From Thermoanaerobaculia bacterium (GTDB taxonomy: Bacteria; Acidobacteriota; Thermoanaerobaculia; Gp7-AA8), in NCBI GenBank assembly GCA_963715895.1, contig OY970284.1, forward strand, positions 2,441,484 to 2,505,483: 64,000 bases of DNA, read 5' to 3'. The notes under the pieces are model-generated. The model did no database searches. It worked only from the letters and a program-made list of their open reading frames with translations, and was not told the DNA's origin. The translations under genes were made by a program, and so were the position numbers. Below are positions 2,146 through 64,000 of this stretch, one piece after another. The number at the start of each line of letters is the position of its first letter. The stretch's first letter is position 1.

Positions 2146-2248
2146 CGCTACGCGCGTTGTCGGTTATCGGTTATCGGTTGATTGTGCTTGCGCGCGTTGT
2201 CAGGGAGAAACCAACCGACAACCGATAACCGACAACGCGCGCAGCGCA
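2146..2248. repeat. long imperfect hairpin (about 36-bp arms, about 31-nt loop) whose arms are tandem CGGTTRT heptamers; sits between cheR stop and cheB start
   Basis: Left arm gcgctacgcgcgttgtcggttatcggttatcggttg. Right arm caaccgacaaccgataaccgacaacgcgcgcagcgc, the reverse complement with 2 mismatches. Same heptamer as the 43137-43335 element. Confidence 0.75.
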
Positions 2249-14987: not shown

Positions 14988-15006
14988 GCCGACCTTATAC
15001 ACGGGG

Positions 15007-15161
15007 TTGCGGGGTCTCGCGGTTGCGAGGTCGCGGGGTGGGGGGGCTGGGTTGGTTGGTTTGTGGGTTGCTGCGTGGAGTCACTGCCGAATTGTTACAA
15101 CTCTGCAACCGAGCAACTCAGCAACCACGAGACCGCGAGACCGCGCAACCGCGAGACCGCC
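15007..15161. repeat. inverted repeat with arms of tandem GCGGTCTCGCG-type units (about 30-bp arms, about 88-bp spacer that itself contains GGTTG/CAACC inverted repeats) in the divergent region between dcp2 and the BNR gene
   Basis: Left ttgcggggtctcgcggttgcgaggtcgcgg; right ccacgagaccgcgagaccgcgcaaccgcgagaccgcc. Confidence 0.6.
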
Positions 15162-20108: not shown

Positions 20109-20182
20109 CTCACGCGGAGGCGCGGAGGCGCGGAGAGAAAGACATGATGAGTTCTCCTCTCCGCGTCTCCGCATCTCCGCGT
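20109..20182. repeat. hairpin with GCGGAGRC-type heptad arms (30-bp stem, 12-nt loop) in the divergent rSAM / Pat-like intergenic
   Basis: tcacgcggaggcgcggaggcgcggagagaa / ttctcctctccgcgtctccgcatctccgcgtga. Confidence 0.7.
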
Positions 20183-23056: not shown

Positions 23057-23380
23057 CTTGGGATCACGCCACTCCCGAAGGCCTTCAAGATCACACGCGC
23101 GTGAGATTTGCGACTCGCGACGGTATTCAAGATCACACGCGCATGAGATTTGGGACTCGCGACGGTATTCAAGATCACACGTGCATGAGACTTGGGACCC
23201 GCGACGGCCTTCAAGATCACCCGCGCATGAGATTTGGGATCAGGGATCGCCTCGAGGTCATGCGTGTCTGATATTTGTCCCCATGCGATCTGGCCTCGAG
23301 GTCATGCGTGTTTGATATTTGCCCCCATGCGATGTGGACTGAGGTCTTACGCATCTGATATTGACCCCCGCGTGGTAGCC
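23057..23380. repeat. array of 42-44-bp tandem repeats: 4 direct units (ttcaagatcacACGCGCatgagatttgggactcgcgacggta) followed by 3 units in inverted orientation
   Basis: Units at 23083, 23126, 23168, 23210 (direct) and 23252, 23296, 23340 (about reverse complement). Not CRISPR-like: no unique spacers. Confidence 0.7.
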
Positions 23381-29700: not shown

Positions 29701-30419
29701 GAATCGGCGTAGAGCTTGTCGCTCGCGGTGGGGAAGGGGCCCGGAACGAACGGTGAGTCATCGGCGGAGTAGGTCGTCGAAACGGAGAGGACCTGGAAGA
29801 TGGTGTTCGGGAAGTTGATGAAGGCCTCGAACTGGTTGTATCCCTGCGTGGCCGTTCCCCCGAGAAGCTGAATGACGTAGGTGTTGCCGACCACCATGTC
29901 CATCGACCCGCCGGCGGGGACGGAAACGAGGGTGGGGATGGTCGCCCCGAACTTGACGTCGGAGACGGAGTTGCGGTTCTGCGAGATGAGGTGCTCGACG
30001 TAGATCTCGCGCGGTGTCGACGTGGAGATCGTGCCCGAGAGGTCGGTGGCGGTGATGTGGTACCGGCGGGTGGTATCGAATGCCGCCGCGGTCTTGACGA
30101 TAGCCACCTCGAAGAATGCGTCTTTGCACTGGCCGGCAGGGATGGACGGAATGGTGATCGTGGTGAGCGAGCCGGCGCGCAGATCGACGAACGCGTTGGC
30201 CGTGTCCCAGACGTAATTGACGGCGACGTTCGTGGTGGCCACGCTGCTGCAGACGCGCGCGCCGACCGGGAAGTTGCCGGGGCCGGTGGCGGGTGAGTTG
30301 CTGTCGAGTCCGACGACGTTCCAGGATACCGGGGCGATGGTCAGCGTCACCGCGGCGTTCGCGGCAACCGGGGCCAGCAGTGTGAAGAGACACATAGCGA
30401 TCAAAGAGATACGGCGCAT
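23748..30419 (-). CDS. giant (2223 aa) secreted cell-surface protein with about 12 tandem DUF11 ('conserved repeat domain') repeats and an IPTL-CTERM-like C-terminal sorting signal
   Basis: Signal peptide MRRISLIAMCLFTLLAPVAANA. About 118-aa units (VSVVKTLTTSGPFT.GQ.ISYTIVVANAGPSTATNVQVTDTP...GGGCAALPCTIASLASGAN.TI.VTATI...) repeated with near-identical 354-bp DNA period between about 24100 and 26950. C-terminus VPAMSGYALMLLALTLAIAAAIAIRPRG. Confidence 0.85.
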   Translation of the reverse strand: MRRISLIAMCLFTLLAPVAANAAVTLTIAPVSWNVVGLDSNSPATGPGNFPVGARVCSSVATTNVAVNYVWDTANAFVDLRAGSLTTITIPSIPAGQCKDAFFEVAIVKTAAAFDTTRRYHITATDLSGTISTSTPREIYVEHLISQNRNSVSDVKFGATIPTLVSVPAGGSMDMVVGNTYVIQLLGGTATQGYNQFEAFINFPNTIFQVLSVSTTYSADDSPFVPGPFPTASDKLYADSCLWENDPNSPNYRSCVGGDFKAGGNNVVTTYTIKVVSGGGTSQPLNTLLYDFSGSSYHYNGDFTTGARIANVIDPTSATIAKSFSPNPTSLNGVSALTITLTNPNGGTVGGYNFVDNLPANLLVANPAGATTSGCGAPTLTATAGSSSISFSNGTLAANSNCVIKVNVTPSATGSLVNTTNHLFIDTTDTGHNATATLTVNTAPPPGTGLCGLTLAKWTFPTGFTLTSPAPSTNNVGTAQAEPGPGLSNPTIQATNSSTTADGTSSWGSNGAITTGTTLVTANDDYYEFAINTTGVSSVTLNFDALEKTPNGPKGLAVFFGTTTKGAGTSEPAASIFNSATAITSTNTWQSFGPITVNSGLNSSGLTFFRIYPYNSGNTNAGSDSNIDNVTFTGCKAAVQPTIAKAFSPNPVAAGGVSTLTFTLTNTNTAALTGAAFTDSLPSGVQVAATPTASTTCGGTWAPAAAATSLTFSGGTIPASGSCTVSVHVTATSAGPHGNVSGTLSTTESGTNISSVGSATLTALVPPVIAKGFNPTPILAGGTSILTFTITNPNQNDAISGVAFADTFPTSPGAMTVGPSPSPATSGCGAPSFSPVTGAGSISFSGGTIAGGGICTVSLQVTVPAVGTYNNTSGNVSYIINAATVNGNTASGSLDAGTPHPSISLLKQISASASGPWSIFLPLSSGPVFYRFTVENTGDVPLSPISITDDTIDVSGCNAGFASVTLPVAVAANDNHIITCVAGPVAITPGSHTNTAHATGTFSGTPHDSANSSATYATTGLTLDKTSVETTYLNPGDTIHYNYLVTNSGSAPLQGPVTVADNKATVTCPAVSTVGDLDNFLDPGESITCTAAYIITGTDIANASVTNTATATVQGVNSNSDSTTVILATAADVSVVKTLTTSGPFTSGQSITYTIFVANAGPATATNVQVTDTPTNETITNVTGGGCAALPCTIASLAAGGNATITVTATINSPGAFDNSATVSATQPDPNPGNNTDNTGNGGITGASADVSVDKTLDTAGPFTVGETISYTIVVANAGPSTATNVQVTDTPSNLSITSVSGSGCAALPCTIASLASGANTTINVTATITAVGSFDNTATVSATEPDPDPSNNTDSTGNGGTAAASADVSVVKTLTTSGPFTETESITFSLVVANAGPSTATNVQVTDTPTNLTITNVNGGGCAALPCTIASLASGANVTITVTATINASGAFNNSATVSATEPDPNIGNNTDNTGNGGTALASADVSVVKTLVTSGPYALGQSISYTLVVANAGPSTATNVQVTDTPTNLNITSVSGSGCAALPCTIASLASGANTTINVTATITAVGAFDNSSTVSATEPDPNLANNTDSTGNGGTAVASADVSVVKTLTTAGPFNAGQSISYTIVVANAGPSTATNVQVTDTPSNMTITNVSGGGCAALPCTIASLASGANVTINVTATITAAGSFDNTSTVSATEFDPNTNNNTDSTGNGGTATLSADVSVVKTLTTSGPFTAGQTISYTIVVANAGPSTATNIQVTDTPTNMTINTVSGGGCAALPCTIASLASGANVTINVTATITTVGAFDNSATVSATEPDPNPGNNTDNTGNGGVTGASADVSVVKTLTTAGPFTVGQTISYTIVVANAGPSTATNVQVTDTPTHMTITNVSGGGCAALPCTIASLASGANVTINVTATINAAGSFDNTATVSATEPDPNSGNNTDNTGNGGTAAASADVSLVKTLTTTGPFTSGQTISYTIVVANAGPSTATNVQVTDTPTNLTITNVTGGGCAALPCTIASLASGANVTITVTATITAAGAFDNSATASATEPDPNPANNTDNTGNGGTTGTPSADLGIVKTAPTPLLEQSQFDYTLVVTNHGPSTATGVVVTDPLPANFTLATATPTQGSCSGTTTVTCNLGTIPNGATATIVIHGTGHVAGTMTNTATVSGNETDPVPANNSSTAPVVLLEEVPAMSGYALMLLALTLAIAAAIAIRPRG

Positions 30420-30711
30420 AGATGGACCTCGCAAATGCCAATACCGGGTGCTGGAAGCTGGACAAATAGCCAGCGCACTCCCCCGGCTGGTTATGGGAAA
30501 ACGATTTTGGACCCGCGTCACTGTAACCGGTTCCAATCACAGTGCCGTCAATCCTGAATGATGAGACCGTGAAAATCGGTGCGGCCAGGGTTCTGCGTGG
30601 CAGAACGATCGAGCGAAGAGGTTGGCCGAGCCTTTGGCAACCAGCGAAGCCGGCCGTGCCGGCCCTACCCGCCCTTGATACCCTCCCTACCCCGTGGGGT
30701 GGCGTGCGGCA

Positions 30712-32053: not shown

Positions 32054-32370
32054 GCCCGGCACTTCTCACACTCTGACGTAAATCGCCGCCACCCTGTACC
32101 CCGTCGAGGGCCTTCTCCCCCGCGGTTTCTAGCGGGGGAGAAGGTGCCGACAGGCGGATGAGGGGGCGCTCGCGCGTGTGTTATTCGCGCGCGAGTCGTG
32201 CTTTCAAGCGGCGATTGCGCCAACGGCGCAAGATCGTTTCTGACGCGTATGCGCCCTCCTCATCCGCCTGTCGGCACCTTCTCCCCCCGCAAAAAACCGC
32301 GGGGGGAGAAGGCCCTCGACGGGGTAAAGAGTGCCGATGATTTACGTGAGAGTGTGAGAAATGCGGGCTC
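32054..32370. repeat. modular MITE-like element copy B
   Basis: Two inverted 57-nt hairpin modules (ccttctcccccgcggtttctagcgggggagaaggtgccgacaggcggatgagggggcg and its complement). Outer IR ttctcacactctgacgtaaatcg / cgatgatttacgtgagagtgtgagaa. Confidence 0.65.
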
Positions 32371-32460
32371 GTGTGATCCCCATCACCCGCCCCCTTGACG
32401 CGCGTCATCCGTCGCTGTTCGTGCGCGACGTACCTTGCAGTTCGAAGGAGACGCGCCGCC

Positions 32461-35400
32461 ATGTCGCTCGCCGAAGTCCTCAATCCGCATCAGAAAGCAC
32501 CGCAGAAGAACGTCGTCGAATACGCGATGGTCGACGGCAACGAAGCCGTGGCCCGCATCGCCTACGCGATGAACGAAGTGATCGCCATCTATCCGATCAC
32601 GCCATCCTCCTCGATGGGTGAATGGGCGGATGCCTGGTCGGCGGCAAAGCAGAAGAATCTCTGGGGGACGATTCCGGCGGTCGTGGAGATGCAGAGCGAG
32701 GGGGGCGCGGCGGGAGCGGTGCATGGCGCGTTGCAGACCGGATCGCTTGCCACGACCTTCACCTCGTCGCAGGGCCTGCTGCTGATGATCCCGAATATGT
32801 ACAAGATCGCCGGCGAGCTCACCCCGGCGGTGTTCCATGTCGCGGCGCGCTCCCTGGCCACGCACGCGTTGTCGATCTTCGGCGATCACTCCGACGTGAT
32901 GTCGGTCCGCTCGACCGGCTGGGTGATGCTCTGCTCGGCCAGCGTTCAGGAAGCACAGGATTTCGCCATGATCGCGCACGCCGCCACGCTAGAGGCGCGC
33001 ATCCCCTTCCTGCATTTCTTCGACGGCTTCCGCACGTCGCACGAGATCGCCCGGATCGAAGTGCTTTCCGAGGATCAGATGAGGGCGATGATCGACCTCG
33101 AGCTGGTCTTCGATCACCGCTCCCGCGCCCTGTCGCCCGATCATCCGGTCATCCGCGGTACGGCGCAGAACCCGGATGTCTTCTTCCAGTCGCGGGAACG
33201 GTCCAATCCGTTCTATCGCGACTGCGCATCGATCGTCGTCGAGACGATGGAGCGCTTCGCGCGCGTCACCGGCCGCGCCTACGCGCCGTTCGAATATCAC
33301 GGTGATCCTGTAGCTGAGCGCGTAGTGATCGTCCTCGGCTCGGCCGCCGAGACGCTGCATGAGACCGTCGACGTGTTGCGGGATCAGGGAGAACGCGTCG
33401 GCGTGCTGAAGGTGCGGCTCTATCGCCCCTTCGACAACCAACGCTTCCTCGATGCACTGCCGGAGTCGGCCCGCGCCATCGCCGTGCTCGACCGCACCAA
33501 GGAGCCCGGCGCCGCTGGTGAGCCGCTCTATCTCGACGTCGTCAACGCTCTCTTCGACTCCGACCGCCGCCCGCGCGTGATCGGCGGACGCTACGGCCTC
33601 TCCTCGAAGGAGTTCACTCCGGCCATGGCCAAAGGCGTTTTCGATCATCTCCTCGACCCCAAGCCGCGGAAACAGTTCACCGTGGGGATCGTCGACGACG
33701 TGACGCACCTGAGCATCGACTACGACCGGGCGTTTTCTACTGAGACCACTGACGTCTACCGCGCCATGTTCTACGGACTGGGGTCGGACGGCACGGTCGG
33801 CGCGAACAAGAACACCATCAAGATCATCGGCGAGGAGGGTGGCCGCTTCGCGCAGGGCTACTTCGTCTACGACTCGAAAAAAGCGGGGGCGATCACGGTG
33901 TCGCACCTTCGTTTCGGACCTCGGCCGATCCGCTCGACGTATCTGGTCACCAGCGCGAACTTCATCGCCTGCCACCAGCCACAGTTCGTCGAACGCGTCG
34001 ACATGCTGAAGGACCTGGCGCCGGGCGGGACGTTCCTGCTCAACGCGCCGGCGGGTTTCATTCTGCCGCGCACGTTCGCGGCGCAGTTGGCCGCGAAGAA
34101 GGCACGCGTCTTTGCCATCGACGCCACGCGCGTGGCCGCCGAGTGCGGCCTCGGCAACCGCATCAATACTCTGATGCAGGTCTGCTTCTTTGCCACCGCC
34201 GAGGTGCTGCCGATCGAGGAGGCGCTGGAAGCCGTCCGCGAGACCATCCGCAAGACCTACGCGAAGAAGGGCGAGAAGGTCGTGGCCATGAATCTCCGCG
34301 CGGTCGACGCCGCGCTGCAGAGTCTGCGTCCGATCGCGATCGACACGGAAGCACAGACAAGAGTGTCTGTGCCACAAGAGACAGGAGTGTCTGTGTCACA
34401 AAAGGAGAGCCAATGTGGCACAGACACTCTTGTCTGTGCCGGGCCGCTCCGCGACGTCATCCTGCCGATCATCGAAGGCCGCGGTGAGGATCTCCCGGTC
34501 AGCGCCATGCCGTGCGACGGCACGTTCCCTTCCTCCACCGCGCGCTACGAGAAGCGCAACCTCGCCACCGAGATCCCGGTGTGGGATCCGGTCTCCTGCA
34601 TCCAGTGCGGCAAGTGTGCGATGGTCTGTCCGCACGCGGCCATCCGGATCAAGGCCTATGACCAGTCGCTGCTGGAAGGCGCGCCGGCCACGCTCAAGTC
34701 GCTGACGCCGATGCACAAGGATTGGGCAGGGCTGGCGTACACCATCCAGGTCGCACCGGAGGACTGCACCGGTTGCACGATCTGCGTCGACGTCTGCCCG
34801 GCCAAGAGCAAGAGCGTTCCAGACCGCAAGTCGCTTTACATGCAGCCGCAGCCGCCGCTGCGCGATGCGGAGCGCGAGAACTGGAACTGGTTCCTCGATC
34901 TGCCGGAGCTCGACCGATCGAAACTCAATCCGACGCTGATCCGGCATCAGCAGCTCCAACAGCCGATGTTCGAGTTCTCCGGCGCCTGCTCCGGCTGCGG
35001 CGAGACGCCGTATGTAAAGCTGCTCACACAGCTCTTCGGCGACCGCCTGGTCGTGGCCAATGCCACCGGCTGCTCGTCGATCTACGGCGGCAATCTGCCG
35101 ACGACGCCCTGGTCGACGAACCGTGACGGCCGCGGCCCCGCCTGGGCGAACTCCCTCTTCGAGGACAACGCCGAGTTCGGCCTCGGCTTCCGCGTTTCGA
35201 TCGACAAACAGCGTGACTTTGCCATCGAGCTGCTGAAGTCTCTCGCCCCCGCCGTCGGCGAGAACCTGGCGGCCTCGATCATCGATGCCACCCAGCGCGA
35301 CGATGCCGAGATCTTCGAGCAGCGCAAGCGCGTCGAGCTGCTCAAAGTCGCTCTGCGCCGCCTGGAGCTGAAGACCCGGATGCACAAGCTCGATCCGACC

Positions 35401-36087
35401 GACGAGCAACAGCTCCTGGCGCTGGCCGACTTGCTCGTTAAAAAGTCCGTGTGGATCCTCGGCGGCGATGGCTGGGCCTACGACATCGGCTTTGGCGGAC
35501 TCGATCACGTCCTGGCCAGCGGCCGGAACGTGAAGGTGCTCGTCCTCGACACCGAGGTCTATTCGAACACTGGCGGACAGATGTCGAAGGCGACCCCCCG
35601 CGCGGCCGTGGCCAAGTTCGCCGCCGGCGGCAAGGCCGCCAGGAAGAAGGACCTCGGCCTGATCGCGATGACGTACGGGCACGTCTATGTCGCCAGCGTG
35701 GCCATGGGCGCGCGTGACGAGCACACGCTCAAATCGTTCATCGAAGCCGAGGCGTATGACGGCCCGTCGCTGATCATCGCCTACAGCGCCTGTGTCGCCC
35801 ACGGCTACGATCTGGGGACATCGCTGCAGCACCAGAAGACGCTGGTCGAATCCGGCCAGTGGCTGCTCTACCGCTACAACCCCGAGCGCACCGCTGAAGG
35901 CAAGAACCCGCTCCAGCTCGACTCGCGCGCCCTCAAGCTCCCCGTCGAGAAGTTCCTTCGGATGGAGAACCGCTTCAACCAACTGCTGAAGAACGACACC
36001 GAGGAATCCCGCAACGTGATCGCCGCCGCGCAGCACGACGTCGACGCACGGTGGAAGATGTACAGCTATTTGGCGGCGGAGAAGTGA
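32461..36087 (+). CDS. por: pyruvate:ferredoxin (flavodoxin) oxidoreductase, single-chain NifJ/Por type (1208 aa)
   Basis: Domains I-III, two ferredoxin-type 4Fe-4S motifs (CIQCGKCAMVCP, CTGCTICVDVCP), TPP-binding GDGWAYDIGFGGLDHVLASGRNVKVLVLDTEVYSNTGGQ. Start at ATG 32461 (MSLAEVLNPHQKAPQKNVVEYAMVDGNE). Confidence 0.9.
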   Translation: MSLAEVLNPHQKAPQKNVVEYAMVDGNEAVARIAYAMNEVIAIYPITPSSSMGEWADAWSAAKQKNLWGTIPAVVEMQSEGGAAGAVHGALQTGSLATTFTSSQGLLLMIPNMYKIAGELTPAVFHVAARSLATHALSIFGDHSDVMSVRSTGWVMLCSASVQEAQDFAMIAHAATLEARIPFLHFFDGFRTSHEIARIEVLSEDQMRAMIDLELVFDHRSRALSPDHPVIRGTAQNPDVFFQSRERSNPFYRDCASIVVETMERFARVTGRAYAPFEYHGDPVAERVVIVLGSAAETLHETVDVLRDQGERVGVLKVRLYRPFDNQRFLDALPESARAIAVLDRTKEPGAAGEPLYLDVVNALFDSDRRPRVIGGRYGLSSKEFTPAMAKGVFDHLLDPKPRKQFTVGIVDDVTHLSIDYDRAFSTETTDVYRAMFYGLGSDGTVGANKNTIKIIGEEGGRFAQGYFVYDSKKAGAITVSHLRFGPRPIRSTYLVTSANFIACHQPQFVERVDMLKDLAPGGTFLLNAPAGFILPRTFAAQLAAKKARVFAIDATRVAAECGLGNRINTLMQVCFFATAEVLPIEEALEAVRETIRKTYAKKGEKVVAMNLRAVDAALQSLRPIAIDTEAQTRVSVPQETGVSVSQKESQCGTDTLVCAGPLRDVILPIIEGRGEDLPVSAMPCDGTFPSSTARYEKRNLATEIPVWDPVSCIQCGKCAMVCPHAAIRIKAYDQSLLEGAPATLKSLTPMHKDWAGLAYTIQVAPEDCTGCTICVDVCPAKSKSVPDRKSLYMQPQPPLRDAERENWNWFLDLPELDRSKLNPTLIRHQQLQQPMFEFSGACSGCGETPYVKLLTQLFGDRLVVANATGCSSIYGGNLPTTPWSTNRDGRGPAWANSLFEDNAEFGLGFRVSIDKQRDFAIELLKSLAPAVGENLAASIIDATQRDDAEIFEQRKRVELLKVALRRLELKTRMHKLDPTDEQQLLALADLLVKKSVWILGGDGWAYDIGFGGLDHVLASGRNVKVLVLDTEVYSNTGGQMSKATPRAAVAKFAAGGKAARKKDLGLIAMTYGHVYVASVAMGARDEHTLKSFIEAEAYDGPSLIIAYSACVAHGYDLGTSLQHQKTLVESGQWLLYRYNPERTAEGKNPLQLDSRALKLPVEKFLRMENRFNQLLKNDTEESRNVIAAAQHDVDARWKMYSYLAAEK
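34351..34440. repeat. inverted pair of the 24/30-nt hairpin element inserted in-frame inside the por coding sequence
   Basis: 34351-34373 gcacagacaagagtgtctgtgcc; 34411-34440 caatgtggcacagacactcttgtctgtgcc; degenerate third copy 34381-34399. Translated as ...EAQTRVSVPQETGVSVSQKESQCGTDTLVCAG... without stop or frameshift. Confidence 0.8.
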
Positions 36088-36194: not shown

Positions 36195-36575
36195 TTCTTC
36201 ACGAGCGGTCGTGTAGCCTCCAGAGCCTCATGGGTGTGGCTTGAAGCCTCTCAGGGTGGACTCTGAGCCTCCTCCATGACGCTTTAGGCCTACCCCATGA
36301 GGCGTCGAGCCTCCTCAGTAGATCCATGGATCTACCCAAGTGGGCTCTAAGCCTACCCCATGAGGCTGTAGGTCTCTTCAGTAGATCCATGGATCTACTC
36401 AAATAGGCTTTAAGCCTACCCCATGAGGCTTTAAGCTTTAAGCCTATTCGGTAGATCCATGGATCTACACCATGAGGCTTAAAGCCTACCCTATGAGGCT
36501 TGAAGCCTATTCAGTAGATCCTGGGATCTACTCGAGACGAAAAAAAGCCTATTCAGTAGATTCAGAATCTACTCG
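36195..36575. repeat. array of about 6 units (about 63 bp) each carrying an 18-bp palindrome GTAGATCCATGGATCTAC and a second IR AAGCCTaccccatgAGGCTT
   Basis: Perfect palindromes at 36318-36335, 36381-36398, 36451-36468; variants at 36514-36531 and 36555-36571. In the convergent por / 36562 gene intergenic, bordering the low-GC islet. Confidence 0.75.
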
Positions 36576-43136: not shown

Positions 43137-43335
43137 GTTGTCGGTTATCGGGGCGGTTATCGGTTATCGGTTGTCGGTTGTCTGGGGCGCGGTAGGTAGA
43201 AGGGTGGGGAATCGGAGTTTCGGATCACACCAACGTCTGACCTCCGACAACCGACAACCGACAACCGACAACCGACAACCGACAACCGACAACCGACAAC
43301 CGATAACCGACAACCGACAACCGATAACCGATAAC
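43137..43335. repeat. large inverted repeat whose arms are tandem CGGTTRT / YAACCGA heptamers (about 5 on left, 12 consecutive on right) separated by about 63 bp
   Basis: Left gttgtcggttatcggggcggttatcggttatcggttgtcggttgtc. Right gacaaccga(caaccga)x6 taaccgacaaccgacaaccgataaccgataaccgacgac. Same heptamer as the cheR-cheB hairpin. Confidence 0.8.
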
Positions 43336-43457
43336 CGACGACCCAACCCCACCCAAAACACCCCAGTGCAGTCCATGCCATGCCTGTGCAACTCGCGTAA
43401 ATCACGCAAGCGGCGGCATTTGTGCAGTGTTAGAGCGTAACGAAGGGAGTAAGGGTC

Positions 43458-46736: not shown

Positions 46737-47028
46737 GCCTCACTCTCATGTAAATCGCCGGCGCCCTCTTTACCCATCGACGGCCTTCTCCCCCGCGGTT
46801 TCTGGCGGGGGAGAAGGTGCCGACAGGCGGATGAGGGGGCGCTTGCGGGTGCGTTATTCGTGCGCGACACGTGTTTTCAAGCGGCCCTTGGGCCAACGAC
46901 GCAAGATCGTTTCTGACGCGTATGCGCCTCCCTCATCCGCCTGTCGGCACCTTCTCCCCCCGCAAAAAAACCGCGGGGGGAGAAGGCTCTCGGCGAAAGG
47001 GCGTGGCAAGAAACGAAGCAATGCTGTG
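46737..47028. repeat. modular MITE-like element copy C (left outer IR truncated; right end runs into the parE-like toxin gene)
   Basis: Contains the 57-nt hairpin module in inverted pair. Right-end homology to copy A ends at cacagcattgcttcg (47014-47028, reverse strand). Confidence 0.6.
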
Positions 47029-54723: not shown

Positions 54724-55004
54724 TGCCGTTCGTCTTCGTGATCCCGGGACCGTTGCGTGAGCTGGCCGGTGGCCGCGCGGAGATTCGCGTCGACGGCGCG
54801 GCCGGCTCCGTATCCGAGGCGCTGGCGCTGCTCGGCAGCGACTACCCCAAGGTTCACGACCGCATCGTCACCGAGCTCGGCGAGGTCCGCCCTCACATCA
54901 ACATCTTCATCGACGGCGACAGTTTCCGCGACCTCGGCGGGTTGGGTGCTCCGATCCGAAGCGGCGCGGAGATCATTATTCTGCCCGCGGTTAGTGGGGG
55001 ATAG
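54723..55004 (+). CDS. MoaD/ThiS-family ubiquitin-like small protein ending in Gly-Gly
   Basis: 93 aa, MPFVFVIPGPLRELAGGRAEIRVDGAAGSVSEALALLGSDYPKVHDRIVTELGEVRPHINIFIDGDSFRDLGGLGAPIRSGAEIIILPAVSGG*. ATG overlaps the stop of the BNR gene (TGATG). Confidence 0.65.
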   Translation: MPFVFVIPGPLRELAGGRAEIRVDGAAGSVSEALALLGSDYPKVHDRIVTELGEVRPHINIFIDGDSFRDLGGLGAPIRSGAEIIILPAVSGG

Positions 55005-55262
55005 TCCCAAAGTGGATACCGGCCAGGGCGCGGCAAGTACTGCCCCCTCATCCGCCTGTCGGCACCTTCTCCCCCAGCTGAAAAGCGCTGGGGGAGAAGG
55101 ACTCTCGATGTAAGGGAAGCGCAAGCTCTTGTTCTCTCGGGGCGGTCGCAGGGTTTGGAAGAAATCTTCGTGTTACGTGCTCGCGCTTCCCTAATATCGA
55201 GAGTCCTTCTCCCCCGCGTTTTTCAGCGGGGGAGAAGGTGCCGACAGGCGGATGAGGGGGCG
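55003..55262. repeat. modular MITE-like element copy D (variant core; shares about 40-bp left-flank homology with copy E)
   Basis: ccccctcatccgcctgtcggcaccttctcccccagctgaaaagcgctgggggagaagg ... ccttctcccccgcgtttttcagcgggggagaaggtgccgacaggcggatgagggggcg. Confidence 0.6.
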
Positions 55263-55317
55263 GTGCTTGCAATGCTCTTCTCTGCATCCGAGGTGGTTGC
55301 GGCTCGGATGCGGTGCC

Positions 55318-55986
55318 CTACGTCCCCCCGTCCTCCACATTCTTCAAATAGAACGACAGCGACTCCAGGTTGATGCGGAGGTCGACGGATTTGACCTTCA
55401 CGCCGGGGCGGGCGCGGAGCTGGGTGGGGGCGAAATTGAGGATGGCGTTCAGGCCGACGTCGGCGAAGGCGTCGTAGACGCTCTGGGCGGATTCGGCGTT
55501 GACGGCGACGATACCGATGTCGACCTGCTGATCGCGCACGATGGTCGGGAGATCCTCCCACGCCAGGACTTCGATGCCGATGCGGGAGCGGCGTCCGATT
55601 TTCGCAGGGTCGTTGTCGATGAGCGCGGTGATCTGGAAGCCGTGATCGTTGAAACCGCCGTAATCGGCTAACGCCATGCCGAGGTTGCCGGCGCCGGCGA
55701 TGAGAACGCGGCGGGTGCGGTCGAGGCCGAGCTCGCGCACGAGGTGGTCCTTCAGGCGCGACACGTTGTAGCCGACGCCGCGCGTGCCGAACTCGCCGAA
55801 GCAGGCCAGGTCTTTGCGGATCTGCGCGGAGTTGAGGTGGAAACGCTCGGCCAGTTCCGCCGAGGAGACGGTCTTCTGGCCGCAGGACTCGAGGAAGGTG
55901 AGACAACGAAGGTAGACCGACAACCTGCCGGTCGTCATCTCCGAGATCGTTTCGCGTTCGTTGTGGTTCAGCCGGTCGTTCGACAT
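55318..55986 (-). CDS. rex: redox-sensing transcriptional repressor Rex
   Basis: N-terminal winged-helix, Rossmann GAGNLG (VLIAGAGNLGMALADY); located directly downstream of nuoN. Confidence 0.85.
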   Translation of the reverse strand: MSNDRLNHNERETISEMTTGRLSVYLRCLTFLESCGQKTVSSAELAERFHLNSAQIRKDLACFGEFGTRGVGYNVSRLKDHLVRELGLDRTRRVLIAGAGNLGMALADYGGFNDHGFQITALIDNDPAKIGRRSRIGIEVLAWEDLPTIVRDQQVDIGIVAVNAESAQSVYDAFADVGLNAILNFAPTQLRARPGVKVKSVDLRINLESLSFYLKNVEDGGT

Positions 55987-55995
55987 GAGTCGGGA

Positions 55996-57498
55996 CTACG
56001 GCAGGAGCGCGCGGGCTGCTGCTCCGGCCGCATTGAAAAGAGGCGTTGGAAAGAGGCCGATGGCGAAGATGCCGATGAGTGAGATCAGCAGTGCACCGGT
56101 GCCGAAGATGTCTGCGTCGATGAGAACGGAGATCGGGAGCCGGGAGTCGGAGATTGCGTTAGTCTCACCATGCGAATTCGCGGTCTCGGGCTCCTTCATG
56201 TAGAGAAAGTAGACCACGCGCAGATAGTAATAGACCGAGACGATGCTGGTCAGGATGCCGATGAAGGCGATGGTCATATGACCGGAGTCGACGGCGGTCT
56301 TAAAGATGTAGAACTTGGCGATGAAACCGGCGGTGGGGGGGAGGCCGGAGAGCGAGAACATGCAGATGGTCAGTGCCAGGCCGTAGAACGGGCGGCGGAA
56401 GCCGAGGCCGGCGATGTCGTCGAGCGTCTGCGGATCGTTCTGGTTCTTGGCCAGCATGGAGATGACGCCGAAGGCGCCGATGTTCATCAGGGCGTAGGTG
56501 ATGACGTAGACGCTGATGGCGGCCACCGACTCATCGCGCAACGAGAGGAGAGCGATCAGCATGTAACCGACGTGGGCGATGCCGGAGTAGGCCAGCATCC
56601 GCTTCAGGTCGCGCTGGGCGATGGCCACGGCGTTGCCGATGATCATCGAGAGGATCGACAGCGCCGCCACCATCTTCATCCACGAGGCCTGCTGGATGAC
56701 CGGCGTCATCGACGAGAAGATGCGCACCAGGGCGATGAGCGTCGCTGCTTTGGGCGCGACGGAGAGCCAGCCGGCGATGGGTGACGGGGCGCCCTGATAG
56801 ACGTCCGGCGCCCATCCGTGGAACGGCGCCACGGCGAGCTTGAAGCCGAGGCCGGACATCAGGAGAATGAAGGCGATGGTGAGGAGCGGATTGCCGGGAT
56901 CGGCCGTGGCGAAGTAGCGCGAGAAGGCGGCCAGGTTCGTCGAGCCGGTGGCGCCGTAGAAGAGCGCCGTTCCATAGAGGACGAAGCCGGTGGCGAACGC
57001 CCCCATCAGGAAGTACTTGAGACTGGCCTCGTTGGAGACGGCGATCCGGCGGTGGAAGCCGACCAGGACGAAGATGCAGATCGAGAGTAGCTCCAGCCCG
57101 AGGATGACGATGAGGAGGTCGAGCCCCTTGGCCATCATCATCATCCCGACCGTTCCCCACATCAGCAGGGCGTAGAACTCGCCGCGCTCGAACCCCTCAC
57201 GGGCCAGGTAGGCGCGGGCGAAGAGCGTGGCCAGGACGGCGGCCAGGAGAAAGGTGTAGTCGAAGATCGCGGTGATGCCGCTGATCTGGTAGGTGCCGCC
57301 GAAGAAGTTGCCGCCGACGAGAAGGCGCTCGCTCCAGCCGGCGGCGAGGAAGACGATCACGGCCAGCGGCGACGTGGCACCGCGCAGTTTCGGAGCGAAG
57401 GCGTCGAAAAGGATCAGCAGGATGCCGCCGATCGAGAGGATCAGCTCGGGGAGGATGGCATTCAGCCAGCCGGGTTCGAGCAGCGGGGTCAGGTTCAA
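55996..57498 (-). CDS. nuoN: NADH-quinone oxidoreductase subunit N
   Basis: NuoN/ND2 antiporter-like TM protein; TTG start (SD ggaggtg) overlapping nuoM stop (TTGA). Confidence 0.8.
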   Translation of the reverse strand: MNLTPLLEPGWLNAILPELILSIGGILLILFDAFAPKLRGATSPLAVIVFLAAGWSERLLVGGNFFGGTYQISGITAIFDYTFLLAAVLATLFARAYLAREGFERGEFYALLMWGTVGMMMMAKGLDLLIVILGLELLSICIFVLVGFHRRIAVSNEASLKYFLMGAFATGFVLYGTALFYGATGSTNLAAFSRYFATADPGNPLLTIAFILLMSGLGFKLAVAPFHGWAPDVYQGAPSPIAGWLSVAPKAATLIALVRIFSSMTPVIQQASWMKMVAALSILSMIIGNAVAIAQRDLKRMLAYSGIAHVGYMLIALLSLRDESVAAISVYVITYALMNIGAFGVISMLAKNQNDPQTLDDIAGLGFRRPFYGLALTICMFSLSGLPPTAGFIAKFYIFKTAVDSGHMTIAFIGILTSIVSVYYYLRVVYFLYMKEPETANSHGETNAISDSRLPISVLIDADIFGTGALLISLIGIFAIGLFPTPLFNAAGAAARALLP

Positions 57499-59054
57499 CG
57501 GACACCTCCAACGTCGACGAATGACGGGGTATGGCGAGGGAGGGTGTTCCTGGCGATCATGGCCTTGCTGGCATCGGTCTTGTGGACGATCTGCAGGAGT
57601 TGCTGGACGCTCGGTGTCATCTTGCGCAGGAAGGTATTGGGGCGGATGCCGATCCAGACCATCAGGATGACCAGCGGGACCAGCGCGGCGATCTCGTTCC
57701 AGGCGATCTCGCGAACGTTGCGGTTCTCGTCCTTCGTGATCGGCCCGAAGAAGACGCGCTGGATGAGCCAGAGAAGGTAGATGGCCGCCAGGATGACTCC
57801 CGTCGCCGCGACCACCGTCCATCGCGGGAACGTCTGGAACGATCCAGCCAGGATCAGGAACTCGCCGATGAAGCCGTTCAGGCCCGGCAGACCGACCGAG
57901 GAGAGCATGGAGATGATGAAGAACGTTGCGAAGACCGGCATGGTCTTCGCCAATCCGCCGTAGTCGGCGAGAAGGCGCGTGTGCCGCCGTTCGTAGATCA
58001 CGCCGACGCAGAGGAAGAGGGCGCCGGTGGAGAGGCCATGGTTGACCATCTGCAGGATCGAGCCTTCGATCGAGGTCTGGGTCAGGGCGAAGATGCCCAG
58101 CACGCAGAAGCCGAGGTGGGAGACCGAGGAGTAGGCCACGAGCTTCTTCATGTCCGGCTGCACCCACGCCACCAACGCACCGTAGATGATGCCGATGACC
58201 GCCAGAGCGATGAGCAGGCCGGCGTATTTGGCGGTGGCATCGGGGAAGAACGGCAACACGAAGCGGAGGAAGCCGTAGGTGCCCATCTTCAGCATCACCC
58301 CGGCCAGGATGATCGAGCCGCCGGTAGGCGCTTCAACGTGCGCGTCAGGGAGCCAGGTGTGCAGCGGGAAGAGCGGGACCTTGATGGCGAAGGCGAGCGC
58401 GAATGCGAAAAAGAGCAGCGTCTGCGCGTGCGGCGCCAACGACGTGCCGTACAGCTCGGTGATGGCGAAGGTGATCGTTCCGGTGTCGTGGTAGTGGGCG
58501 AAGCCGAGATAGATGATGCCGAGCAGCATCAGCAGCGAGCCGGAGATGGTGAAGAGGAAGAACTTGATGGCCGCGTAGATCCGGTTCGCGCCGCCCCAGA
58601 CGCCGATCACCAGATACATCGGCAACAGCGTCAGCTCGAAGAAGACGTAGAAGAGAATCAGGTCGCTGGCGACGAAGACGCCGATCATGGCCGCTTCCAT
58701 GATCAGGAAGGCGATGACGTACTCCTTCGGATGCTTGTGGATGGTGTTCCATGAGGAGAGGAACACCACCGGCGTCAGAAGGGTGGTCAGCAGGATGAGC
58801 CAGAGCGAGATGCCGTCGACGCCGAGCGAGTAGCGGATTCCCCACTGCGGGATCCAGGCGAGCGACTCGACGAGCTGCAAGCCGGCCACCCCTTCCTTGA
58901 ATTGACCGACGATGCCGAGCGAGACGATGAAGGTGGCGATGGACGCGAGCAGTCCAAAGGCCTTGATCGCATTCGCCGCCGTCTTCGGAAAGACGAGCAG
59001 CAGCACGGCCGAGGCGATGGGGAGCCAGAGGGTGAGGGAGAGGACGTTAGTCAT
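57495..59054 (-). CDS. nuoM: NADH-quinone oxidoreductase subunit M
   Basis: NuoM/ND4 family (MTNVLSLTLWLPIASAVLL...); start ATG 59054. Confidence 0.85.
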   Translation of the reverse strand: MTNVLSLTLWLPIASAVLLLVFPKTAANAIKAFGLLASIATFIVSLGIVGQFKEGVAGLQLVESLAWIPQWGIRYSLGVDGISLWLILLTTLLTPVVFLSSWNTIHKHPKEYVIAFLIMEAAMIGVFVASDLILFYVFFELTLLPMYLVIGVWGGANRIYAAIKFFLFTISGSLLMLLGIIYLGFAHYHDTGTITFAITELYGTSLAPHAQTLLFFAFALAFAIKVPLFPLHTWLPDAHVEAPTGGSIILAGVMLKMGTYGFLRFVLPFFPDATAKYAGLLIALAVIGIIYGALVAWVQPDMKKLVAYSSVSHLGFCVLGIFALTQTSIEGSILQMVNHGLSTGALFLCVGVIYERRHTRLLADYGGLAKTMPVFATFFIISMLSSVGLPGLNGFIGEFLILAGSFQTFPRWTVVAATGVILAAIYLLWLIQRVFFGPITKDENRNVREIAWNEIAALVPLVILMVWIGIRPNTFLRKMTPSVQQLLQIVHKTDASKAMIARNTLPRHTPSFVDVGGVR

Positions 59055-59066
59055 TGCTTCGCCCTC

Positions 59067-59167
59067 GGGGGTCGGGGGTCGGGGGTAGGAGGTCGGAGAA
59101 GGCAGGCCGAGGGCGCGAAAACCAGAGCGGGTTTTCTCCGACTCCCGACCCCCGACTCCCGACTCCC
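59067..59167. repeat. hairpin with GGGGTCG / GGGAGTC heptad arms (about 33-bp arms, about 33-nt loop) filling the nuoL-nuoM spacer
   Basis: ggggtcgggggtcgggggtaggaggtcggagaa / ttctccgactcccgacccccgactcccgactccc. Confidence 0.75.
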
Positions 59168-59169
59168 GC

Positions 59170-61089
<1,920 letters not shown>

Positions 61090-61095
61090 GTACGG

Positions 61096-61193
61096 GAAGG
61101 ATGAAGGCAGAGGGCAGAAGGCAGAAGTGTGAGTCGAGAGGCCTCAGGCCGCTACGACTTCATCCTTCTGCCTTCTGCTTTCTGCCTTCATCC
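61096..61193. repeat. hairpin with GAAGGCA heptad arms immediately upstream of nuoL
   Basis: gaaggatgaaggcagagggcagaaggcagaag / cttcatccttctgccttctgctttctgccttcatcc. Confidence 0.75.
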
Positions 61194-61237
61194 TTTGTTC
61201 TCTCCTCGCATCTGCCGATGCGGGGAGCGTCTCCGCA

Positions 61238-61648
61238 TCAGCTCTGATCTTTTACACGTTCCTGGTAGTCATCGGAGGAGGCCGGGTCGAGCTCCCAGCG
61301 GTGTTCGTCGCGACTCCGTTCCTTTTCTCCGACTTTCAGCTCCTCGTCGTCGGCGTACGAGATTCCCATCGCCGCCGCCGTCTCCTCGGTGTCATTCTGG
61401 CCGGGGGTTGGCTGGCTCCCGGCCGACGCCTCGTCGCCCTGCGACTCGGCCATCTCCCACTGTGCGTCGATATCGCCTCCGGACAGCGACGGATCGACGC
61501 CGTTGTTCTCGCGCAACCGTCCCGCGAGCTTCTGCGTCCCCGCCTCGACGTCCGGCATGGCCGGCTCGATGCGGTCGTCGATGCCATTGCGATTCCTGTC
61601 CTTCCGCTCGTCCTCTTCCCAGTCAATGAGCTTCTCTGTCTTGTCCAT
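61238..61648 (-). CDS. acidic, low-complexity hypothetical protein (136 aa) inserted between nuoK and nuoL
   Basis: MDKTEKLIDWEEDERKDRNRNGIDDRIEPAMPDVEAGTQKL...; no TM, very acidic; flanked on both sides by heptad-arm hairpins. Confidence 0.5.
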   Translation of the reverse strand: MDKTEKLIDWEEDERKDRNRNGIDDRIEPAMPDVEAGTQKLAGRLRENNGVDPSLSGGDIDAQWEMAESQGDEASAGSQPTPGQNDTEETAAAMGISYADDEELKVGEKERSRDEHRWELDPASSDDYQERVKDQS

Positions 61649-61693
61649 TTTCGGCTCCTGTTGAGCCTGAAAATGCGACGTTCGTGCCGTCTT

Positions 61694-61781
61694 GAGCTGT
61701 TAGCTCTTAGCTGTTGGCTCTTAGGGGACCGAAGTCACAGATTTGGATGTCCCTAAGAGCTGACAGCTAACAGCTAAGAGC
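61694..61781. repeat. hairpin with AGCTNTT heptad arms between nuoK and the acidic ORF
   Basis: gagctgttagctcttagctgttggctcttagggga / tccctaagagctgacagctaacagctaagagc. Confidence 0.75.
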
Positions 61782-61787
61782 TTTCTC

Positions 61788-62090
61788 TTACCACCTCATC
61801 AAATTCGCCTCATCTACGTCGATCGTGTGCCGGTGATGGAACAGGGAGATGAAAATGGCCAGGCCGACGGCGGCTTCGGCGGCGGCGATGGCCATGACGA
61901 AAAAGACGAAGAGCAGTCCGTGGATCTGATGGAACTGGCGGGCGTAGGCGACGAAGGTCAGGTTGACCGCGTTCACCATCAGCTCGATGCACATGAAGAT
62001 GGTGATGCCGTTCTTCCGCGTCAGCACGCCGCAGACGCCGAGGGTGAAGAGGATGGCGCTGAGGATCAGGAACCAGTGGGTCGGAATCAT
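61788..62090 (-). CDS. nuoK: NADH-quinone oxidoreductase subunit K
   Basis: 100 aa, [49 protein letters not shown]...; start overlaps nuoJ stop (ATGA). Confidence 0.85.
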
Positions 62091-62611
62091 AGTTTGTTCT
62101 CCCCCGTCGGAGGTGGGATTGCGCCCGTGCGGCCGCTGAGGATCAACGCGCCGACGATCGCCGCCAGCAGAAGGATCGAGACCATCTCGAACGGGAAGAT
62201 GTAGGCCTCGAACAGGCGGATCCCGACGGTCCGCGCATCCGAAACGAACGGCCCGTCGGGCAGCTTCGTCACGCCGAATTTGGCGAGGTAGTAGATGAGT
62301 GCCAGCCCGAATGCGGCGCTGGTGGTGTAGCCGAGGAACTGTTGCACCGGGCGCGTGCGGGGCTCCTCCTGATGCTGCAGGTTCAGCAGCATGATCACGA
62401 AGAGGAACAGCACCATGATCGCGCCGGCATAGACGATCACCTGCAACGCCGCCAGGAACGGCGCCTCGAGCAGCACGTACATCACCGCCAGCGCGAAGAA
62501 CGACGCCACCAGCGACAGCGCCCCCACCACCGGGTTGCGGTGCAGCACGACCACAGCCGCGAAGATCACGGCGATAGCGGCGAAGAAGAAGAAGATGGCG
62601 AAGGTGATCAT
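62087..62611 (-). CDS. nuoJ: NADH-quinone oxidoreductase subunit J
   Basis: 174 aa NuoJ/ND6-like TM protein. Confidence 0.8.
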
Positions 62612-62618
62612 GGTCTCG

Positions 62619-62930
62619 GGGTCTCAAAACGTGGATACGGCAAGGGCATGGCAAGCACCGCCCCCTCATCCGCCTGTCGGCACCTTCTCCCCCAGCTGAA
62701 AAGCGCTGGGGGAGAAGGGCTCTCGATGTTAGGGAAGCGCAAGCTCTTGTTCTCGGGGCGGCCGCACGGTTCTGGAACTAATCTTCGCGTCACGCGCAGA
62801 GCCCAAGGCTTAGTACTGCAGACTGCTTGAGCCACTGGCCACGCCCTTTCGTCGAGAGTCCTTCTCCCCCCGCGGTTTTTTGCGGGGGGAGAAGGTGCCG
62901 ACAGGCGGATGAGGGGGGCGTATACGCGAC
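62619..62930. repeat. modular MITE-like element copy E occupying the position where nuoI would be expected (between nuoH and nuoJ)
   Basis: Same 57-nt modules as the other copies; right end gcgtatacgcgacataaacgat is homologous to the interior of copy A. Confidence 0.6.
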
Positions 62931-62969
62931 ATAAACGATCTACCGACCCTGGTTCGATTGAAAGCGTCG

Positions 62970-63974
62970 TCATATCCACCTCTTGGCGATGAACCACGCC
63001 ACGAGAACCACGTTCCCCAACGCCATCGGAAGGAACACTTTCCATCCGAGTTTCATCAGCAGGTCGTACTTGAGGCGGGGGATCGTCCAGCGGACCCAGA
63101 CGAAGATGAAGAGGATGATGCTGACTTTGACCAGGAAGGCCAGCACCGACACCGCGAAGCCGAAGGCGTTCGGCGGCTCGTTGTACCAAGGGATGTCCCA
63201 CCCGCCGAGATACAGCGTGGTGATCAGCGCCGACATCGTGGCCATGGCCATGTACTCGGACATGAAGAAGAGCGCGAACTTCATCGACGAGTATTCGGTG
63301 TGGTATCCAGCCACCAGCTCGGCGTCGGCTTCCGCGAAGTCGAATGGCAGCCGGTTCGTCTCGGCGAAGGCGGAGACGAAGAAGACGATGAAGCTCATCC
63401 ACATCGCCGGCGAGCAGATGTTCCAGGCCGGGAGCTTGATGGTGTTGAAGAGGACGAACGAGCCGGTCTGGCGCCAGACCACGTCCGTCAGCGAGAGCGA
63501 TCCGGCCACCATCAGCGCGCTGACCGCGGCCAGCGTGAGCGACAACTCGTACGAGATCATCTGCGCCGAGGCCCGGATGCCGCCAAAGAGCGAATACTTG
63601 TTGGCCGACGCCCAGCCGGCCATGACGATGCCGTAGACGCCCATCGACGCCAGCGCGAAGATCAGCAGGATGCCGATGTTGACGTTGGCGATGATCGGCT
63701 CGAAGAGGCGGCCGCCCGGCAGCAGGAAGGGCCGGCCCCACGGGACGACGGCGATCGTCGTCAGCGCCGGGATCAGGCCGAACATCGGCGCGATCGTGTA
63801 GAGGATCTTGTTCGCCTTGGCCGGCAGCATGTCCTCTTTGAGCACGAACTTCAGCGCGTCGGCGAACGACTGGAAGAGGCCGAAGGGTCCGACGCGGTTG
63901 GGGCCGGGACGGTCCTGAATCAGCGCGCTGCCGCGCCGTTCCACCCAGACCATGATCGGGGTGACGTTCAGCAT
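62970..63974 (-). CDS. nuoH: NADH-quinone oxidoreductase subunit H
   Basis: 334 aa NuoH/ND1 family (MLNVTPIMVWVERRGSALIQDRPGPNRVGPFGLFQSFADALK...). Confidence 0.85.
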   Translation of the reverse strand: MLNVTPIMVWVERRGSALIQDRPGPNRVGPFGLFQSFADALKFVLKEDMLPAKANKILYTIAPMFGLIPALTTIAVVPWGRPFLLPGGRLFEPIIANVNIGILLIFALASMGVYGIVMAGWASANKYSLFGGIRASAQMISYELSLTLAAVSALMVAGSLSLTDVVWRQTGSFVLFNTIKLPAWNICSPAMWMSFIVFFVSAFAETNRLPFDFAEADAELVAGYHTEYSSMKFALFFMSEYMAMATMSALITTLYLGGWDIPWYNEPPNAFGFAVSVLAFLVKVSIILFIFVWVRWTIPRLKYDLLMKLGWKVFLPMALGNVVLVAWFIAKRWI

Positions 63975-64000
63975 CGCTCCCAGGACGACGGCGATTTTCA

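Follow-up and report, generated by a model that had tools for sequence, protein, structure and literature searches.

Bacterial complex I is usually seen as a minimal enzyme of 14 subunits, for which few lineage-specific extra subunits or assembly helpers are known. The nuo genes on a contig of a Thermoanaerobaculia bacterium (Acidobacteriota; assembly GCA_963715895.1, contig OY970284.1, positions 2,441,484 to 2,505,483; this whole stretch of 64,000 nucleotides (nt) is called the window below) raise two questions: what a small acidic open reading frame (ORF) does between nuoK and nuoL, and where nuoI is, which does not stand between nuoH and nuoJ. We identified the acidic ORF as a member of the Pfam domain-of-unknown-function family DUF6335 and found it at the same junction in all 67 loci of its clade that span it. 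Judging from sequence comparison, we tentatively favour the reading that its product is a non-catalytic accessory factor of complex I, acting in assembly, stabilisation or regulation.

An acidic DUF6335 protein is encoded between nuoK and nuoL

A Pfam scan of the window gave, on the minus strand, the order nuoH, repeat element, nuoJ, nuoK, hairpin, acidic ORF of 136 amino acids (aa), hairpin, nuoL, hairpin, nuoM, nuoN and rex. An earlier note, made from the sequence alone, had given the same gene order, and our own reading of the sequence agrees with it. The note had also described the junction of nuoK and nuoL as split by an acidic, non-membrane ORF flanked by heptamer hairpins, which is borne out by the isoelectric point (pI) of the protein, by RNA folding and by the repeats in the hairpin arms. 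The membrane-arm genes nuoH, nuoJ, nuoK, nuoL, nuoM and nuoN are intact, as judged by their Pfam matches and by 34-44% identity to the Escherichia coli subunits; in the related locus L001 the orthologous nuoH product has 356 aa. Overlaps of 4 nt join nuoJ to nuoK and nuoM to nuoN, and spacers of 358, 139, 148 and 115 nt lie between nuoH and nuoJ, nuoK and the DUF6335 gene, the DUF6335 gene and nuoL, and nuoL and nuoM, respectively. The contiguous fourteen-gene order from nuoA to nuoN (Nuo14) of canonical operons is not present: with X for the acidic ORF, the unit reads G-H-J-K-X-L-M-N-rex, and A-E-F are separate. The window is best explained as the 3' two-thirds of a conserved transcription unit nuoG-H-J-K-DUF6335-L-M-N-rex.

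The acidic ORF matches DUF6335 (PF19861) over residues 30-131, with an E value of 8.8e-29 and a score four times the cutoff of 25 bits. We found 1731 homologues in a 90%-clustered protein collection, in which entries with a name are called "DUF6335 family protein [Thermoanaerobaculia bacterium]", and the family forms 845 clusters in a 50%-clustered library. The G+C content at third codon positions (GC3) is 0.81, matching that of the neighbouring genes, and the median pairwise ratio of nonsynonymous to synonymous substitution rates (dN/dS) is 0.22 (1107 pairs from 60 orthologues). Moreover, a Shine-Dalgarno (SD) sequence of the AGGAG type precedes the gene in 59 out of 59 orthologous loci, compared to 14 out of 59 for nuoL. 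These values indicate purifying selection on the DUF6335 gene, which invariably has a strong ribosome-binding site of its own. A chance ORF is ruled out by the dN/dS ratio, GC3, the SD site and the 1731 homologues. The earlier note had made its view of this ORF depend on conservation; the dN/dS ratio and the number of homologues show that the ORF is conserved.

The position of the DUF6335 gene is fixed in a Thermoanaerobaculia clade

Using the family motif, we searched a single genome from each GTDB species and annotated the resulting loci by tblastn. In 62 loci, all from metagenome-assembled genomes (MAGs) labelled Thermoanaerobaculia or unclassified Acidobacteriota, the order nuoK-DUF6335-nuoL lies inside the same eight-gene unit, and the DUF6335 proteins are 60-95% identical to that of the window. 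Five additional loci at contig edges agree with this arrangement. A sample independent of DUF6335 came from metagenome contigs, which we scanned with the Rex box from upstream of nuoG (see below): all five hits that span nuoK and nuoL carry DUF6335 between them. Counted over genomes and metagenomes, DUF6335 thus lies between nuoK and nuoL in 67 out of 67 clade loci. Long orthologous contigs show a divergent SurA-like gene followed by nuoG-H-J-K-DUF6335-L-M-N-rex, and rex follows nuoN in every locus that is long enough to show it.

DUF6335 is an acidic, probably soluble protein with a putative cation-binding loop

The 136-aa protein has a pI of 4.2, 38 Asp and Glu against 17 Lys and Arg residues (28% Asp+Glu), a grand average of hydropathy of -1.4 and no hydrophobic segment. 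Its conserved core, approximately residues 50-131, contains the motifs GGDxDAxWE, GDE, PTPDQ and RDxHRWELDPASSxDY (RDxxRWELDPxS family-wide), and seven residues (D59, D61, G71, P82, G95, D114 and P122) are invariant in 143 DUF6335 sequences. Copies from the clade have, in addition, a conserved N-terminus: MxKTxKLIDW and, after it, D17-x-N-x-N/D-G-x-x-D25-x-I-E28-P. In the window protein residues 17-28 read DxNxNGxDDxIE, and 57-60 of 60 sequences share the loop residues D17, N19, N/D21, G22, D25 and E28. We take this stretch, a region modelled at low confidence, to be a putative cation-binding loop, since its spacing fits the DxDxDG or EF-hand-like pattern D-x-[DN]-x-[DN]-G-x-x-D-x-x-E.

AlphaFold runs with 33 and 143 sequences gave mean confidences (predicted local distance difference test, pLDDT) of 63 and 67 and predicted template modelling scores (pTM) of 0.22 and 0.32, with only short helices. 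Foldseek returned no match of the model in the PDB below E = 1. Apart from DUF6335 itself, neither a profile search of the PDB nor NCBIfam, PHROGs or a permissive scan of Pfam yielded anything. Searches of Pfam, NCBIfam and the sequences and folds of the PDB gave no homology to an assembly factor or accessory subunit known from complex I. We expect the acidic protein to be cytoplasmic and soluble, disordered over much of its length, and to have a putative cation-binding loop of the DxDxDG type. Many longer family members carry extremely acidic or histone-H1-like basic low-complexity tails. Two members (P0183 and P0225) are predicted fusions, one with an AlaDH/PNT N-terminal fragment and one with a lipoyl and E3-binding domain; they are probable gene-calling artefacts, or may be real links to NAD(H)-dependent enzymes.

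A Rex box precedes the unit in relatives, and rex closes it

A Rex-operator-like box, TTGTGAAANNTTTCACGG, is found before nuoG in 55 out of 55 relatives with enough upstream sequence. It has the form TTGTGAAANNTTTCAC(G/C)(G/C) and lies about 100 nt (range 31-162) upstream of nuoG; the remaining 808 kb of locus DNA contain only eight weak matches. These boxes are those of the relatives, as the nuoG promoter of the window's own strain lies beyond coordinate 64000. The box matches the Rex operator consensus TTGTGAANNNNTTCACAA, and in Streptomyces Rex represses nuoA-N (PMC5355995). No comparable Rex box was found upstream of the separate nuoA-E-F cluster in the loci of relatives. Since relatives have a Rex operator some 100 nt upstream of nuoG, and rex comes last, the unit from nuoG to rex looks autoregulated and responsive to the NADH/NAD+ ratio. 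Expression of rex from the nuoG promoter would require read-through of the DUF6335 gene and of the repeat-armed hairpins, and we infer co-transcription from nuoG to rex. A scan of positions 55000-64000 found no sigma-70-like promoter, and the three terminator-like matches in this region (5.4 are expected by chance) all lie within coding sequence and none in the spacers.

What DUF6335 might do for complex I

The unit from nuoG to rex is best explained as one piece of a complex I gene set that is scattered in the Thermoanaerobaculia clade. If DUF6335 is an accessory factor, it would be made together with the membrane-arm subunits and would act on complex I in assembly, stabilisation or regulation, probably not as a stoichiometric core subunit. 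Rex bound at the nuoG box would couple the operon to the NADH/NAD+ ratio, and transcription would read through the DUF6335 gene and the hairpins, which lack U tracts.

The strongest competing explanation, to which we give a chance only slightly below that of the accessory factor, is that DUF6335 is a passenger: a soluble acidic protein whose function has nothing to do with complex I (a stress or hydrophilin-like protein, say, or a partner of other machinery), which landed between nuoK and nuoL in the ancestor of the clade and was kept since excision would endanger the operon, and not for any benefit of co-expression. The family is large and widespread, its members outside the clade stand alone without recurrent neighbours, and the longer relatives carry low-complexity tails, not respiratory domains. 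The spacers around the gene, moreover, readily accept repeat elements. The junction, however, has been kept in every spanning locus, down to about 60% aa identity with saturated synonymous divergence, no clade member was seen with nuoK directly before nuoL, and the downstream rex depends on transcription through DUF6335.

Several observations weigh against the accessory factor that we favour. The one line of evidence that would tie DUF6335 to complex I is conserved synteny. The gene is not translationally coupled to its neighbours, and its own strong SD suits a protein whose dose is set independently just as well as it suits an accessory factor. The AlphaFold models are poor, and the searches of the PDB, NCBIfam and PHROGs remained without a match. 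The DUF6335 copies of similar or lower identity from other lineages, namely Vicinamibacterales, Luteitalea, Solibacteraceae, Blastocatellia and one Nitrospirae MAG, are not nuo-linked and have no recurrent neighbour; the Vicinamibacterales members, at about 60% identity, lie in unrelated, variable neighbourhoods. The same is true of the second DUF6335 copies in two nuo-linked genomes (L082 and L083), whose neighbourhoods are unrelated as well. Stand-alone relatives, the separate SD and the predicted disorder fit a passenger equally well. Finally, the location of nuoB, nuoC, nuoD and nuoI elsewhere in the genome (see below) is one that we infer.

In a rough neighbour-joining tree the Vicinamibacterales copies fall near or within the nuo-linked group and the other stand-alone copies outside it. 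Because of this placement, and because the relatives outside the clade stand alone, the nuo-embedded position appears to be a clade-specific fixation of one member of a widespread stand-alone family. A more elaborate proposal sees in DUF6335 a partner of complex I that has so far escaped notice, be it a supernumerary subunit or a factor for assembly or regulation. It may bind a cation through its loop, and would have been recruited from the stand-alone family and fixed between nuoK and nuoL in a Rex-autoregulated operon. As a whole, this proposal is in our view rather unlikely.

Still less probable is a stoichiometric, structural supernumerary subunit that docks on the membrane arm from the cytoplasmic side, close to NuoK, NuoJ and NuoL. 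Such a subunit would account for the strictly conserved position, and other bacteria have lineage-specific extra subunits, for example Nqo15 and Nqo16 in Thermus and three in Paracoccus. DUF6335, however, resembles no known accessory subunit or solved structure and is predicted to be mostly disordered, similar copies work outside nuo operons in sister lineages, and the strength of its SD is unlike that of the neighbouring nuo genes. Of the roles considered here, we keep to that of a non-catalytic accessory factor, as a tentative preference by a small margin over the passenger.

The Q-module genes are absent from the unit

NuoI, NuoB and NuoCD of E. coli, used as tblastn queries, had no match in the window, and the only NuoI-type pair of CxxCxxCxxxC motifs in it, at 34597-34797, is part of a pyruvate:ferredoxin oxidoreductase (32395-36087). 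The earlier statement that nuoI is absent between nuoH and nuoJ thus holds by motif search and by tblastn. Nor does nuoI lie just outside the window in a different order: upstream of nuoH there is nuoG, followed by the divergent SurA-like gene. The NuoG protein of the Thermoanaerobaculia clade is short (532-541 aa).

nuoI is one of four Q-module genes, together with nuoB, nuoC and nuoD, that are missing from the cluster. By tblastn, no nuoB, nuoCD or nuoI was found within about 8 kb in any nuo-linked DUF6335 locus, and some 80 genome loci, each up to 16 kb long, contained none of the four genes. We also scanned metagenomes with TTGTGAAANNTTTCACGG, guessing that nuoBCDI might share a Rex box with nuoG; the scan returned nuoG operons and unrelated loci, and none of its 120 loci contained nuoB, nuoCD or nuoI. 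All these searches covered a small fraction of each genome. nuoA, nuoE and nuoF form a cluster of their own on the other strand, about 3 kb upstream of nuoG, in at least 14 loci (e.g. L005 1536-3772 and L006 1-1708); the subclade to which the window belongs (L004, L008-L017) has no such cluster within 6-8 kb.

In the supplementary table of a study of Acidobacteria MAGs, nuoH and nuoJ have consecutive locus tags, and nuoI and nuoB are at unrelated loci (PMC6018796); the main text speaks of "nuoACDHJKLMN operons" (Hausmann et al., 2018). Because adjacent nuoH and nuoJ with an unlinked nuoI are listed there, the lack of nuoI at this position is an acidobacterial trait that is already documented in other Acidobacteria. 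The peatland MAGs of that study (SbA1-7; Table S2b), whose nuo operons are of the 14-subunit type, belong to the same phylum and share with our clade the consecutive nuoH and nuoJ and, probably, the orphan nuoI and nuoB. They differ in that nuoA, nuoC, nuoD, nuoE, nuoF and nuoG stay in the operon, whereas here nuoC and nuoD are absent as well and nuoA-E-F form a separate divergent cluster or lie further away; moreover, here DUF6335 stands between nuoK and nuoL, and rex closes the operon. The Thermoanaerobaculia clade goes further, with nuoC, nuoD and, in some of its members, nuoA-E-F also removed from the unit.

Since the other nuo genes are intact and other Acidobacteria provide the precedent, nuoB, nuoC, nuoD and nuoI are probably encoded elsewhere in the genome. 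The absence of nuoI from the operon would then go back to a scattering of complex I genes that is old and shared by the whole lineage, and would not be due to a recent loss. The earlier note had called the nuo operon remodelled, which is right insofar as the operon is non-canonical and has an extra gene; a local or recent event it is not, since the arrangement is fixed clade-wide.

We consider it very improbable that the four genes are truly missing from the genome and that the locus encodes either a remnant without function or a novel enzyme in which NuoG and the membrane modules are joined with no canonical Q module. The negative searches in the window, the genome loci and the Rex-box loci would fit this, although they cover only the fraction of each genome mentioned above. 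A remnant is implausible with eight intact nuo genes conserved in more than 60 species, and we know of no NuoH that works without the quinone site of NuoB and NuoD. The other Acidobacteria with adjacent nuoH and nuoJ, too, have nuoI and nuoB elsewhere (PMC6018796).

Palindromic repeat elements occupy the intercistronic spacers

The nuoH-nuoJ spacer of the window contains one of five copies of an element that resembles a miniature inverted-repeat transposable element (MITE; five copies in 64 kb, none expected by chance). The copies are 148-257 nt long and fall into two size classes, about 148 nt and 218-257 nt. They share arms of about 60-74 nt with the core GGAGAAGGTGCCGACAGGCGGATGAGGGGG; the element has terminal inverted repeats (arms 88% complementary), is present in several copies and encodes no transposase. 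Another copy, D (55043-55260), lies directly downstream of rex. The spacer folds at -187 kcal/mol (z -9.4), and tblastn found no NuoI remnant in its 358 nt. Relative to locus L002 the whole 358-nt insert is flanked by ATGA on both sides, so that the nuoH stop and the nuoJ start are preserved; the shared MITE arms leave out about 50 nt at either end of it.

The earlier note had placed this element where nuoI should be. In close relatives that have no MITE, nuoI is missing from this junction as well: in L002, whose DUF6335 protein is identical to that of the window, the stop of nuoH overlaps the start of nuoJ (ATGA), in L004 the two genes are 2 nt apart, and in L001, whose NuoJ is identical, the junction has a different element, a 142-bp repeat-armed hairpin. 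The MITE is therefore a recent, strain-level insertion, made when the junction had long been without nuoI. The earlier note had proposed comparing the nuo loci of related genomes; what they share is the position of DUF6335 and the absence of nuoI, whereas the MITE is strain-specific. That the insertion displaced or destroyed nuoI in the window strain has a negligible chance and is ruled out as the cause of the loss: the MITE does sit exactly in the nuoI slot of canonical operons, but the nuoI-free junctions of L002, L004 and more than 55 other species, and the ATGA on both sides of the insert, which leaves the nuoH stop and the nuoJ start intact, speak against it.

The hairpins in the spacers nuoK-DUF6335, DUF6335-nuoL and nuoL-nuoM have arms made of tandem repeats (Table 1). 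By reading of the sequence none of the three is followed by a U tract, and the terminator scan was negative in the spacers. They are ruled out as intrinsic terminators, since no U tract lies 3' of them. The repeat unit is specific to the site, e.g. seven GTTGTCG facing 14 CCGACAA at 43137-43343. Hairpins of this kind sit at operon junctions; most of the 62 related loci have them, and they differ among near-identical strains. In relatives the spacers around the DUF6335 gene measure 34-280 nt, in some genomes only 34-58 nt on both sides; the hairpins are thus optional additions. MITE and hairpins are best explained as mobile or expandable palindromic elements that colonise intercistronic junctions and have no part in the absence of nuoI.

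Table 1. Genes, signals and repeat elements of the nuo locus and of related loci. Positions are those of the window unless a related locus (L) is named.
Feature	Position	Strand	Evidence and remarks
nuoH	62970 to beyond 64000	minus	PF00146, E 3e-114; 5' end about 40 nt past the window edge
nuoH-nuoJ spacer	62612-62969	minus	358-nt strain-specific insertion; alignment with L002, L001 and L004
MITE-like copy E	62661-62917		74-nt inverted arms, each with an inner 14-nt hairpin
nuoJ	62087-62611	minus	PF00499, E 2e-39
nuoK	61788-62090	minus	PF00420, E 7e-29; start overlaps nuoJ stop (ATGA)
Hairpin, nuoK-DUF6335 spacer	61695-61782 (repeat-armed hairpin 61690-61782)	minus	7-nt-repeat arms; -60.6 kcal/mol, z -7.7
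Shine-Dalgarno AGGAG	61655-61659	minus	6 nt upstream of the DUF6335 ATG; sequence reading
DUF6335 gene (136 aa)	61238-61648	minus	PF19861, 100.9 bits
Hairpin, DUF6335-nuoL spacer	61097-61195 (repeat-armed hairpin 61103-61189)	minus	7-nt-repeat arms; -94.5 kcal/mol, z -11.5
nuoL	59170-61089	minus	PF00361 and PF00662; full-length 40% identity to E. coli NuoL
Hairpin, nuoL-nuoM spacer	59065-59168	minus	7-nt-repeat arms; -66.6 kcal/mol, z -4.4
nuoM	57495-59054	minus	PF00361; start chosen by comparison with L004 and E. coli
nuoN	55996-57498	minus	PF00361; TTG start overlaps nuoM stop (TTGA)
rex	55318-55986	minus	PF06971 and PF02629; last operon gene, 9 nt after nuoN
Other MITE-like copies	9723-9870, 32137-32284, 46810-46957, 55043-55260		Repeat search of the window
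Further hairpins of the window	2156-2236, 15002-15160, 20113-20182, 43137-43343		Both arms built from tandem copies of a 7- or 8-nt unit
Hairpin of a related locus	L001 4662-4800		Arms of a tandem 7- or 8-nt unit
Rex box, examples	L004 6255-6272; L001 1869-1886; 53 other loci		Motif scan

Other features of the window

Two tandem 387-aa ORFs (5367-6530 and 6824-7987), 294 nt apart and identical in their first 30 residues, lie in a stretch with a lower GC content of 0.57; the first is a DDE transposase of the IS4-like type (DUF4372 and DDE_Tnp_1). On the minus strand, 23748-30536 encodes a 2262-aa protein of DUF11, DUF7507 and DUF7933 repeats, with eight 354-bp DNA units and a strong GC skew. 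Two non-coding regions consist of tandem repeats, with a period of 42-44 nt at 23084-23369 and of 63 nt at 36281-36531, and the latter borders a low-GC (0.55) stretch at 37-39 kb with few called ORFs.

Comparison with other systems

Non-nuo ORFs among complex I genes, as at our locus, are found in Alphaproteobacteria. The nqo operon of Paracoccus denitrificans contains interspersed unidentified reading frames, which are presumably co-transcribed. The Rhodobacter capsulatus nuo operon contains interspersed unidentified reading frames as well (PMC4758237). These operons differ from ours in that they belong to another phylum, keep nuoI and the full order from nuoA to nuoN, and contain unrelated ORFs and no DUF6335; we found no sequence link between DUF6335 and the interspersed ORFs.

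Small, soluble, lineage-restricted subunits on the 14-subunit core are Nqo15 and Nqo16 of Thermus thermophilus, which are encoded outside the operon, and the NDUFS4, NDUFS6 and NDUFA12 homologues of Paracoccus. DUF6335 has no sequence or fold similarity to them, and its association with complex I is a candidate one that comes from gene position.

The Rex-repressed operons of Streptomyces (nuoA-N, cydABCD and rex-hemACD) have an operator of the TTGTGAA-N4-TTCACAA type upstream of complex I genes, as is the case here (PMC5355995). In both systems rex lies within an operon that it may autoregulate; unlike in Streptomyces, rex is here the terminal gene of the nuo operon itself. The right half-site of our box, which is predicted from sequence, ends in CGG, compared to CAA in the consensus.

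Finally, the repetitive extragenic palindromic (REP) sequences, bacterial interspersed mosaic elements (BIMEs) and MITEs of other bacteria are, like the elements described here, stable hairpins without U tracts at cistron junctions, variable among strains and repeated in the genome. Here, in contrast to REP and BIME palindromes, the hairpin arms are tandem 7-8-nt repeats that differ from site to site, and the MITE has 74-nt arms.

What the locus means

The absence of nuoI and the MITE are the ordinary half of the observation. What is new is the DUF6335 insertion and its strict conservation, which is a reasonable experimental lead; the literature that we searched does not mention DUF6335, nor do reviews of nuo operon diversity mention Acidobacteria. 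If DUF6335 is only a passenger, the finding is one of ordinary lineage-specific gene order. Its presence at one membrane-arm junction in more than 60 species otherwise makes it a testable candidate for a complex I helper, in a clade of abundant soil Acidobacteria that our dataset knows only from MAGs. For annotation, scoring completeness by operon context would wrongly call nuoI, nuoB, nuoC and nuoD missing in these genomes. The conserved Rex box and the terminal rex suggest a simple model of the redox control of complex I in Acidobacteriota, and a role of DUF6335 in complex I, if true, would give this Pfam family, with its more than 800 sequence clusters, a functional context for the first time.

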